Part shown: in pieces, positions 32,901-38,900 of the stretch
Layout of the letters: every line of letters begins with the position of its first letter
Numbering within the stretch: the stretch's first letter is position 1
NCBI RefSeq assembly: GCF_003334315.1
Contig: NZ_QOWR01000006.1
Origin: Escherichia coli
GTDB taxonomy: Bacteria > Pseudomonadota > Gammaproteobacteria > Enterobacterales > Enterobacteriaceae
Reading direction: 5' to 3' (one strand)
DNA length: 64,000 nt
Position numbers: made by a program

Positions 32901-35900
32901 AGTAGTATCAGTTATTTCTCTGATCTCTTTAGTCATTTGGGAGTCGACCTCAGAGAACCCGATTCTTGATCTCAGTTTGTTTAAGTCCCGTAACTTCACC
33001 ATTGGTATTGTGAGTATCACATGCGCGTATTTATTTTACTCTGGAGCGATCGTCCTTATGCCGCAGTTACTCCAGGAAACGATGGGGTATAATGCGATAT
33101 GGGCCGGACTTGCTTATGCGCCCATCGGCATCATGCCACTATTAATTTCACCTTTGATAGGACGTTATGGCAACAAAATAGACATGCGGGTGTTGGTGAC
33201 ATTCAGTTTTTTGATGTATGCGGTTTGCTATTACTGGCGTTCTGTGACATTTATGCCAACGATTGATTTTACAGGTATCATTATGCCGCAGTTTTTTCAG
33301 GGATTCGCCGTTGCCTGTTTCTTTTTACCCTTAACAACGATTTCGTTTTCAGGCTTGCCAGATAATAAATTTGCCAATGCCTCGAGTATGAGTAATTTTT
33401 TTCGTACCTTGTCAGGATCAGTTGGTACGTCGTTGACAATGACGCTGTGGGGACGACGCGAATCGTTACACCATAGTCAGTTGACAGCAACCATCGATCA
33501 ATTTAACCCCGTGTTTAATTCATCGTCACAAATTATGGATAAATACTATGGTTCGCTTTCAGGAGTTCTTAATGAAATTAATAATGAAATAACCCAGCAG
33601 TCACTTTCTATTTCTGCAAATGAGATTTTCCGTATGGCGGCTATTGCTTTTATCTTACTTACGGTTTTGGTTTGGTTTGCGAAACCGCCGTTTACAGCGA
33701 AAGGCGTTGGGTGATGATAAAAGGAGGGGGTTATAGCGGGTAAGACCGGGGATCTTAAGTCTGCGCCATCGGCAGCATCGCTCACCCAGGGAAAGGATTG
33801 CGATGCTGCGTTGAAACGTTATTAACGGCCTTTTGCCAGATATTGATTCATCTCTTCTTCCGGCACCATTCCACCTCCCGTCGCCCACACCAGATGAGTG
33901 GCATTACGCAATTGTTCTGCGCTGAAACCGTGCATCTGTTGGTAACTTACTGATGCACACACGCGCTGAGGTCCGGCCATACCCGCCAGTGCTGAAGGTT
34001 CAAGACGAATACCTTCTTCCTGAGCCAGCCAGCCAAGCATGTCATACATGGTTTGATCGCTAAGGGTATAGAAGCCATCCAGCAGACGCTCCATTGCCCG
34101 CCCGACAAAGCCTGATGCGCGACCAACTGCAAGGCCATCCGCTGCGGTAAGGTTGTCGATACCAATATCCTGAACAGAAATCTGATCGTGTAATCCTGTA
34201 TGGACGCCTAACAACATACAAGGGGAGTGCGTTGGTTCGGCAAAAAAGCAGTGAACATGATCGCCAAACGCCAGTTTAAGCCCGAATGCGACGCCACCAG
34301 GACCACCGCCAACACCACACGGCAGATAGACAAACAGAGGGTTATCAGCATCGACGATACGGCCTTGCTGGGCAAATTGCGCTTTAAGACGCTGGCCAGC
34401 GACGGAATACCCAAGGAACAACGTGCGGGAATTTTCGTCATCAATAAAGAAACAGTTCGGGTCAGACTGCGCTGCTTTACGTCCTTCCTCGACGGCAACA
34501 CCATAATCTTGCTCATATTCCACGACCGTAACGCCATGGCTGCGCAGTTTCGCTTTTTTCCATGCCCGGGCATCAGCAGACATATGAACTGTCACCTTAA
34601 AGCCAATGCGGGCGCTCATAATGCCGATTGATAACCCCAGATTTCCGGTTGAGCCCACAGCAATGCTGTATTGGCTAAAGAACTGTTTAAACTCCGGAGA
34701 AAGCAGTTTGCTGTAGTCATCATCAAGCGTCAGCAACCCCGCTTCCAGAGCCAGTTTTTCTGCGTGTGCCAGGACTTCATAAATCCCGCCGCGTGCTTTT
34801 ATGGAGCCGGAAATGGGCAAATGGCTATCTTTTTTCAGTAACAGTTGCCCGCTGATCGGTTGCTGATATTCTTTTTCCAGCCGTTTTTGCATAGCTGGAA
34901 TGGCAACCAGTTCTGATTCAATAATCCCCCCAGTGGCAGCAGTTTCAGGAAATGCTTTTGCCAGATAGGGTGCAAAACGGGATAAGCGCGCATGGGCGTC
35001 CTGAACATCCTGTTCGGTCAGGCCAACATAAGGTAAACCTTCAGCCAATGAGGTCGTGCCAGGATTAAACCAGGTGGTTTCTTTAAGAGCAACCAGATCC
35101 TTTACCAACGGATACTGGGCGATGAGCGAGTTCATTTTAGCGTTTTCCATAGTACGTCTCTTTGCGCTTAGATGATAAATGACAGCAGGAATGTGCCCGC
35201 CAGAGCGACGACTGAAGCGATAAATGTCGCTGTCGTATAGTATTTAAATGTTTCATTGAGCGTAGCGCCGCAATATTGCTTCACTAGCCAGAAAAGCGAG
35301 TCCGTAACGATCGTGCAGCCAATTGCACCTGAACCGATAGCAATCGCAATAATTTCCGGGCTGATGTCGGGATAAAGCGGCAGCATGGGTGCAACAATTG
35401 CCGTTGCCCCCATCATTGCCACGGTAGCGGAGCCCACTGCCGCATGCAGAATAAGAGCCACTAACCAGGCCAGAAGAATCGGGTGCATATGCATATTGGA
35501 GAGAATAACTGCCAGCGTATCAGCGAGACTGCTGCTTTTTAAAATGGCGTTGAATGCGCCTCCGGCCCCGATAATCAGCAAAATATTAGCAATAGAACCG
35601 AAGCCATTTTCCGTATGTGTGAGCATCGTCCCCATGCTCATATGCTGGCGTATACCCAACACATAATAGGCGACAAACACGGCGATAAACATGGCAGTGA
35701 TAGGGTTGCCAATAAACTCAACCAAGATATACAAACCACTCTCACGCGCCATATTCAATTCGGCAATCGTTTTAACCAACATCAGCGCAATGGGTAGCAG
35801 TATGGTGAATAACGTTGCGCCTAATGACGGTAGTGTTTTTTCATCGCGAACTTTGAGATCTGCAAACTCTGTGGGTACAGGTTTAAAGGGCAGTCGTTGA

Positions 35901-38900
35901 CCCAGAAATTTAAGGAAAAGTGGGCCACCGATCAGTGATGCCATCAGCCCAACCAGCAAACCGTAGACGATCACCGAACCGATATCTGCGCCCAGCTTAT
36001 TGGCAACATATAAAGCAGCCGGATGTGGAGGAACCACGCAGTGCACTGCCATCAATGCGGTACATAGCGGAATGGCAAGCTTTAATAATGAGGTATTGGT
36101 TTTTTTGGCAATTGAAAAAGCCAGAGGAATCAATAGCACGACGCCCACTTCAACAAACAGCGTGATGCCACAAATCAGGCCAACCAGCACCATAATGACA
36201 TCAACTGAAAGCCAGCGGCAGCGTTGAAGTGTCAGACCAATTCTTTCTGCGGCCCCGGATACTTCCATCATTTTTCCCAGTATCGTGCCAAGGCCGATAA
36301 CCGCTGCGAGGAACCCCAGCGTTCCGCCAATTCCACTTTCAATAGCATTTACCATATCCAGTGGCCCCATGCCCATCATCGTTCCCACGAAGAAGCTGGC
36401 CAGCAACAGCGCCAGAAACGGGTGGAATTTGAACTTCACGATGGTCAGTACAATTAACACGATGCTGATAAGCAGCGTGCTCACAACCCAGATTTGAGAG
36501 TGCATATCTCACCTTCCCCTGTGATTAACCTGATGATATTGGACAAAAAAACAACGCAGGCTGACAAACGATAAAATTTGCCTTTCACATGAGGTAAATT
36601 GCATCAATGGAGTGATTTACATCTAAAAATGAAGGTGAATTGAGATATGGTTCACTTTAGCTCATCTCATAGCTGAAATTTTGCCGCTATTTTTTTACAC
36701 TTAAGCGAAAAATGAGGTGATTATGGAACCCCTTCGTGAAATAAGAAATCGGCTGCTTAACGGCTGGCAATTATCAAAAATGCATACTTTTGAAGTGGCT
36801 GCCAGGCATCAGTCCTTCGCCCTGGCGGCAGAGGAATTGTCGCTGAGCCCCAGTGCGGTAAGTCACCGTATCAATCAGCTGGAAGAAGAATTGGGCATTC
36901 AGTTGTTTGTTCGTTCCCATCGCAAAGTGGAATTAACGCACGAGGGGAAACGTGTTTATTGGGCGCTAAAATCGTCGCTGGATACCCTGAACCAGGAAAT
37001 TCTTGATATCAAAAATCAGGAGTTATCGGGAACGTTAACTCTGTATTCCCGGCCCTCTATCGCCCAATGCTGGTTGGTGCCCGCATTAGGTGACTTTACA
37101 CGCCGGTATCCGTCTATTTCGCTCACCGTGCTCACTGGTAATGACAACGTCAATCTGCAACGTGCCGGAATCGATTTGGCGATCTACTTTGATGATGCGC
37201 CGTCAGCGCAACTCACTCATCACTTTCTGATGGATGAAGAAATCCTGCCAGTATGTAGCCCGGAATACGCTCAAAGACATGCTTTAACCAACACGGTAAT
37301 TAACCTGTGTCACTGTACGTTGCTCCATGACAGACAGGCATGGAGCAACGACTCCGGTACGGATGAATGGCATAGTTGGGCGCAACATTATGCGGTTAAT
37401 TTGCCGACATCTTCTGGAATTGGCTTTGATCGTTCTGATTTAGCTGTTATTGCCGCGATGAATCATATTGGGGTGGCGATGGGAAGAAAACGCCTGGTAC
37501 AAAAAAGGCTTGCCAGTGGTGAGCTCGTCGCGCCGTTTGGCGATATGACGGTGAAATGCCATCAGCATTATTACATCACCACATTACCGGGCAGGCAGTG
37601 GCCAAAAATTGAAGCGTTTATTACCTGGCTAAGAGAACAGGTAAAAACCACTTCATAATGAATAAAACCACGAGTTCCTGGTGTGCCTTATTCGGCCTGC
37701 TAGTTCGAATTTAATTTACGGTTTTTATGTGGTTTTAGGGATAAACACAAGGATGGTGTCCCCTGCAGGAATCGAACCTGCAATTAGCCCTTAGGAGGGG
37801 CTCGTTATATCCATTTAACTAAGAGGACAATGCGGCATGAGTATACCCGCTAATGGAGTGCGGGGTAAGTACGCTGCCGCTCGATTGCTTAAACCCTCGC
37901 CATTTATGCCGGGTTTTTATAATTTTTCTTAATGTTTTCCGCACGTTCTGCTTTTTGGCGTGCTTCTGCTTTACGCTTATTGCTCATGTCGTTACGAATC
38001 TGTGCATGACTCATTAACGCGAAGATAAAGGTGCCGCCGCAGATGTTCCCCGCTAAAGTAGGTAGTGCGAAGGGCCAGATGAAATCGCTCCAGTGCAGCG
38101 TACCGTTAAACACCAGATAGAGGATTTCAACAGAACCGACCACGATATGGGTGGTGTCACCCAGGGCAATAAGCCAGGTCATCAATATAATCACCACAAT
38201 CTTTGCCGCACCCGCTGCAGGAAACATCCAAACCATAGTGGCGATCAGCCAGCCGGAAATGATCGCGTTGGCAAACATCTCGCTGGGGGTGTTCTTCATC
38301 ACATCCATGCCGATTTTGACAAATGCATCGCGAGTTTCTTCATTGAAGATAGGCATATATTCAAATGCCCACGCCGCAATACCTGTCCCGAGAATATTAC
38401 CCAGCAGCACGACGCCCCATAACCGTATAAGTAAGCCGACGTTGCTCATTGTCGGTTTTTGCATGACGGGTAGTACCGCAGTCACGGTATTTTCGGTAAA
38501 TAATTGCTGGCGGGCCATAATGACGATAATAAAACCAAAGGTATAACCGAGATTCTCCAGCAAGAAGCTGCCCGGCACACCTTCCAGTTCGACTTGAAAT
38601 ATCCCTTTTGCCAGTAACGAAGCGCCCATCGACAGACCCGCCGCAATGGCTGACCACAGTAGCGCCACTGCGTCGCGTTCCAGCTCTTTTTCACCATCCT
38701 GGCGGATATGCTCATGAATTGCCATCGCCCGGGAGGGGAGTCGGTCTTCATCTATTTCTATTTTTTTGCCGCGCTCTTTTTCTTCGCTCTCAACTTCAAT
38801 TTCGTCGCTGTGTTGATCAATTTTGTCGTTGTCCATGGTCTCTTCTCTTGAATTAGCACGTATAGCTAAAGCGTAGCGGCTTTTTTGCTCGCAACTGACG

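Follow-up and report, generated by a model that had tools for sequence, protein, structure and literature searches.

A complete dsdC-dsdX-dsdA locus beside an unoccupied argW attachment site in an Escherichia coli strain with a K-12-like backbone

Does an Escherichia coli strain that keeps the genes dsdC, dsdX and dsdA next to the tRNA gene argW possess the whole D-serine locus, and what is the state of the integration site beside it? The question was asked of a stretch of 64,000 nucleotides from contig NZ_QOWR01000006.1 (RefSeq assembly GCF_003334315.1), hereafter called the window. An earlier note on this DNA had described the three genes as full length and as adjoining a tRNA-Arg gene with an empty prophage site, and had proposed that this state helps to place the strain type. 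The analysis revealed that the region is almost certainly the canonical chromosomal dsdCXA locus of E. coli for D-serine tolerance and catabolism in its complete form, and that nothing is integrated at argW.

The listing of open reading frames (ORFs) contains three uninterrupted frames at dsdA, dsdX and dsdC, and the limits of the locus given in the earlier note (33822-37658) are exact. All three products match their equivalog profiles over the full length, and a base-by-base comparison with K-12 MG1655, in which re-translation would have exposed a frameshift or a truncation, revealed neither an internal stop nor a change of length. The architecture of the operon is likewise the expected one. 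The dsdC gene is divergent from dsdX and dsdA and shares a control region with them, and dsdX precedes dsdA by 17 nt in the same orientation, which corresponds to the dsdXA operon. The gene order in the window is emrY-dsdA-dsdX-dsdC-argW-yfdC, the simplest arrangement observed.

The DsdA protein scored 814.7 bits against the TIGR02035 equivalog (NF002823; cut-off 368.25), covering positions 1-431 of the 431 in the profile, and 442 of its 442 residues align with the solved structure of E. coli DsdA, 3ss7 (E 3e-300). The models of threonine and serine dehydratases all stayed under their own cut-offs when they were compared with the window proteins. Moreover, DsdA contains the motif SGSIKARGG at residues 114-122, of which the lysine is residue 118; we take Lys118 to be the lysine that binds pyridoxal 5'-phosphate (PLP) in E. 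coli DsdA. A single residue distinguishes the protein from its K-12 counterpart (A417 in the window, T in K-12). The dsdA product is predicted to be D-serine ammonia-lyase, a PLP enzyme converting D-serine to pyruvate and NH3, and from the single amino acid difference to the characterised K-12 enzyme it would be expected to have D-serine deaminase activity.

For DsdX, the match to the NF007395 equivalog reached 937.1 bits (cut-off 618; profile 1-445 of 445), while the models for gluconate permeases of the GntT, GntP and GntU types gave 248-301 bits, under their own cut-offs. The protein is the same as K-12 DsdX without any amino acid change, the gene carrying 2 silent nucleotide changes, and no solved structure could be detected from its sequence. 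These matches identify the dsdX product as a predicted D-serine transporter of the GntP family.

The regulator DsdC matched the TIGR02036 equivalog (NF007491) with 601 bits (cut-off 352.4; profile 1-302 of 302), and the match takes in both the N-terminal helix-turn-helix and the C-terminal effector domain. The next family was GcvA with 242 bits, under its own cut-off, and a GcvA structure (8y6u) was also the sole solved-structure match at E values of at most 1e-20. The listed ORF of dsdC (36717-37658, plus strand) starts from GTG and encodes 313 amino acids, two residues more than the ATG form that the RefSeq annotation of an identical sequence uses. Again, one residue differs from K-12 (T301 in the window, I in K-12). 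The dsdC product is probably the LysR-type, D-serine-responsive activator of dsdXA.

The non-coding parts of the locus are as conserved as the genes. Every base of the dsdX-dsdC control region is the same as in K-12, and the dsdX-dsdA spacer of 17 nt and the convergent emrY-dsdA spacer of 107 bp (33715-33821) are also identical. Just 3' of the dsdA stop, this convergent spacer contains a strong hairpin. The RNA of the spacer, read on the dsdA strand, folds with -33.3 kcal/mol (z = -4.56), and none of the 200 shuffled sequences folded as well. The hairpin has no U-run after its stem and was not called by the terminator pattern scan, and it may act as a transcription stop or as a stabiliser element. 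The latter scan, made over 33600-38000, gave three terminator-like sites, which is below the number in shuffled sequence. In the same interval, the promoter scan returned one promoter-like site only, inside the end of emrY. An Rfam scan of the whole window detected tRNA only, hence no riboswitch or small RNA tied to the dsd locus, and the spacer between dsdC and argW showed no significant folded structure (z = -0.53). The positions of all features are summarised in Table 1.

Table 1. Features of the D-serine locus and of the adjoining tRNA gene, in window coordinates
Feature	Position	Strand	Size	Basis
dsdA	33822-35150	-	442 aa	ORF listing and NCBIfam equivalog match
dsdX	35168-36505	-	445 aa	ORF listing and NCBIfam equivalog match
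dsdC	36723-37658	+	311 aa	NCBIfam equivalog match and RefSeq ATG start
dsdX/dsdC divergent control region	36506-36722	.	217 bp	
Hairpin in the emrY-dsdA spacer	33772-33809	-		RNA folding
Attachment core	37753-37768	.	16 bp	K-12 junction comparison
argW, tRNA-Arg(CCU), intact	37754-37828	-		ARAGORN and Rfam RF00005

The only tRNA gene of the window, argW (63.4 bits with RF00005), lies 95 bp past the dsdC stop, and the locus thus adjoins a tRNA-Arg gene as stated before. The order in K-12 is dsdC, the cryptic prophage CPS-53 (torI ... yfdGH, intS), argW and yfdC. When the two K-12 junctions were compared with the window, the left one, after dsdC, matched up to 37768 and the right one, before yfdC, matched from 37753. 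The two matches overlap in a core of 16 bp, ATGGTGTCCCCTGCAG, at the 3' end of argW; this core is present once in the window and twice in K-12, where 10,215 bp of CPS-53 lie between the copies. The window therefore equals K-12 minus exactly 10,215 bp of CPS-53, with no extra bases, and the claim of an empty prophage site was correct. With an intact tRNA-Arg(CCU), a single core and core-genome sequence running uninterrupted to the left and to the right, the 3' end of argW is an unoccupied bacterial attachment site (attB) for IntS-type, CPS-53-like prophages. Neither csc genes, the sucrose-utilisation genes discussed below, nor a prophage remnant were found elsewhere in the window, which, with the exception of fadL, aligns collinearly with K-12 at 53-37696 and 37753-64000.

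The window differs from K-12 at this place mainly by CPS-53, which was either never acquired or cleanly lost. The second possibility, that a CPS-53-like prophage was precisely excised in a K-12-like ancestor and left the empty argW behind, would agree with flanks that are about 99.8% identical to K-12 and with a junction such as an integrase and an excisionase would leave, namely one 16-bp core without extra bases. However, a site that was never occupied would give the very same sequence, and the two histories look alike in the window. Moreover, several genes of CPS-53 are annotated as incomplete in K-12, and the empty configuration is found on divergent backgrounds too, in keeping with an ancestral state. 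Excision is thus rather unlikely, and it would alter the history of the site only, not the identity or the role of the dsd locus.

In some genomes, the match to the window breaks inside argW or at its 5' end rather than at the 3' end. The O145:H28 strain RM13514 matches the window only up to 37828, and ERL06-2442 and MB07152 match it only from about 37802-37808. These breaks hint at further kinds of rearrangement at argW besides IntS-type integration.

The residues A417 and T301 are the sole amino acid differences from the experimentally studied K-12 proteins, and a locus that looks intact might in principle be silent or impaired through one of them; this is most improbable, because DsdA and DsdC score far over their equivalog cut-offs, other RefSeq genomes contain exactly this dsd DNA, its products having been named DsdA and DsdC by the pipeline of NCBI, and both residues are also found in strain 1437, whose locus is about 97% identical. 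As both variant residues recur in this divergent lineage, the window probably represents the common or ancestral state and K-12 the derived one, and A417 and T301 were rejected as damaging changes.

No sequence evidence against a complete canonical locus was found in the window. Some caveats nevertheless apply. A 64-kb window would not reveal a regulatory or trans-acting defect located in another part of the genome. Furthermore, a simple pattern scan of 33600-38000 gave no match to the sigma-70 consensus in the control region. This result is unremarkable because the dsdXA promoter is activator-dependent, and the identical, functional control region of K-12 likewise lacks a consensus match in the simple scan. 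Finally, the complete RefSeq genomes that were surveyed are a biased sample, and the survey counted DNA coverage rather than the integrity of reading frames: with at least 80% of window positions 33700-37900 in one piece as the criterion, the whole dsd locus was found in 2,723 of 5,426 complete E. coli genomes (50%).

The same survey supports the statement that the locus is variable among E. coli strains. In 14 of 30 evenly spaced sampled records, the match ends inside dsdX at window position 35385 (query position 1686), and a break in dsdX is the usual state of the genomes that lack the whole locus. The genes at this break were examined in two genomes, STEC308 and one O157 strain. In STEC308, genes for a LacI-family regulator, CscA, a kinase and a sugar transporter, which make up a csc cluster, come after the remaining dsdX fragment, and phage-derived genes come after these. 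The O157 strain has the same csc genes, then further island genes, phage genes and intS adjoining argW. The replacement of dsdCX by sucrose genes in some pathotypes, which the earlier note had mentioned, was thus seen directly in these two genomes as cscR, cscA, cscK and cscB. The contiguous dsdC-argW-yfdC junction was found in 912 of the 5,426 genomes (17%), on backgrounds that share at least 99.8% identity with the window as well as on others that share about 95-97%. A further dsdCXA copy at another chromosomal position is present in some genomes.

The near identity of the proteins and the control region allows a mechanism to be carried over from work on K-12 and uropathogenic E. coli. The divergently transcribed DsdC would bind the intergenic region of 217 bp and, with D-serine, switch on dsdXA; DsdX would then take D-serine into the cell, where the PLP-dependent dehydratase DsdA would turn it into pyruvate and ammonia. 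The breakdown of D-serine would remove a bacteriostatic compound and supply carbon and nitrogen. Judging from the sequence, we infer that the locus is expressed and inducible and that it allows growth on D-serine, and the strain is predicted to tolerate and to catabolise D-serine. In the literature, the use of D-serine has been linked to growth in urine and, in some settings, to fitness in the gut. Binding of DsdC to the dsdXA promoter has been described (PMC9659370). Moreover, carriage of dsdCXA and of the locus of enterocyte effacement is nearly exclusive, and the D-serine trait rarely occurs together with this locus in enterohaemorrhagic and enteropathogenic E. coli (PMC4366372). The free argW attB indicates a strain without CPS-53 that is still a potential target for argW-integrating phages.

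The earlier note was right in every factual element, with one caveat on how far the locus places the strain. The state of the locus argues against the O157-type csc arrangement and is consistent with phylogroup A; in one commensal collection, csc was carried by nearly all strains of B1, D and E, by few of B2 and by none of A and F (PMC11251922). However, the locus is intact in half of the genomes, and the combination of an intact locus with an empty site is found on K-12-like as well as on 95-97% identical backgrounds. By itself, the locus state does not tell commensal strains from uropathogenic ones. A far better guide to the strain type is the close agreement of the flanks with K-12. The left part of the window (about 37.6 kb) has 73 differences from K-12 and the right 21 kb have 97, and the backbone in the window is K-12-like with about 99.8% identity. 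The gene order is the standard one (ypdAB ... evgSA-emrKY-dsdAXC-argW-yfdC-mlaA-yfdF-fadL-fadIJ-sixA-yfc fimbriae).

On this backbone, a few neighbouring genes differ from K-12. FadL is a phage receptor, and the fadL gene of the window (41490-42830, minus strand) is an allele that has diverged deeply. Its product shares only 351 of 454 aligned residues (77%) with K-12 FadL, with several indels, and the DNA shows 25-40% differences per 200-nt bin at 41550-42720, with nearly identical flanks. The allele is present at an identity of at least 99% in 206 of the 5,426 complete genomes, and most others are 80-90% identical, which suggests that several old fadL allele classes have been swapped by recombination. 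At the 3' end of yfdF (40067-40350, minus strand), 27 amino acid differences from K-12 YfdF are all located in residues 255-342, the remainder being identical; this end is a short recombination tract or a mosaic end. The empty site and the minority fadL and yfdF 3' end, about 3.7 kb away, may be signs of recombination in the argW neighbourhood beyond the island of dsd, csc and prophage genes, an idea that we regard as rather unlikely. If true, the empty argW and the divergent fadL could reflect phage-driven selection, which would be a modest population-genetic observation and not a new system.

Farther from the locus, yfcU (49135-51780, plus strand) is an intact ORF for a fimbrial usher of 881 amino acids, while the K-12 copy is listed as a pseudogene containing an internal stop; in the window strain, the yfc chaperone-usher operon may therefore be functional. 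Positions 1-52 of the window do not align with K-12, where the IS4-like element IS421 adjoins nupC. This insertion is apparently missing from the window, with only 52 bases to judge by. In strain 2017.04.03CC (NZ_AP025205.2), which is otherwise 100% identical, the flanking 25-kb blocks are about 5.3 kb further apart. An insertion absent from the window must therefore lie between evgS and mlaA in this strain (25000-39001 compared).

Compared with known systems, the window represents a well-characterised locus in a known configuration; its value lies in annotation and typing information, and no new biology is implied. The csc replacement at argW was reportedly described by Jahreis in 2002 and by Moritz and Welch in 2006, the latter being said to be the primary description. 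The variation of dsdCXA and the csc alternative are already published (Jahreis 2002; Moritz & Welch 2006; Connolly 2015, PMC4366372). At argW, a hotspot of recombination, O157:H7 and many other strains have csc genes in place of dsdC and a part of dsdX, and csc-type strains are reported to be sensitive to D-serine (PMC4366372). Whether a strain has dsd or csc predicts its D-serine versus sucrose phenotype (PMC13054288). Furthermore, some strains of neonatal meningitis E. coli (NMEC) have two dsdCXA copies, a second copy being reported for NMEC/K1, and prophage CUS-3 has its integration site between dsdC and argW (PMC9659370).

Among the closest described systems is the dsdC-dsdX-dsdA locus of K-12 MG1655 (Norregaard-Madsen et al. 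1995, as cited in PMC4366372), which has the order and orientation found in the window. The flanks are also the same, with evgAS-emrKY on one side and yfdC-mlaA-yfdF-fadL on the other, whereas CPS-53 lies between dsdC and argW only in K-12. Strains CFSAN061761 (NZ_CP042903.1) and 64EVA (NZ_CP138399.1) share 100% DNA identity over 33700-37900 and the same arrangement from emrY to yfdC, and RefSeq genomes identical over this interval are annotated with dsdA, dsdX, dsdC and tRNA-Arg. However, CFSAN061761 departs from the window a few kb away, where its fadL is of the K-12 type. Strain 1437 (NZ_CP184035.1) has the same three intact genes in the same organisation, its DsdA, DsdX and DsdC differing from those of the window by 2, 4 and 6 amino acids, respectively, and has phage-related genes after dsdC, such as a P2-family capsid gene. 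By contrast, the csc-type loci of O157 and other strains, which occupy the same chromosomal position and are collinear with the window to about 35385, keep dsdA and the last ~218 nt of dsdX and possess cscR, cscA, cscK and cscB in place of dsdC and most of dsdX.

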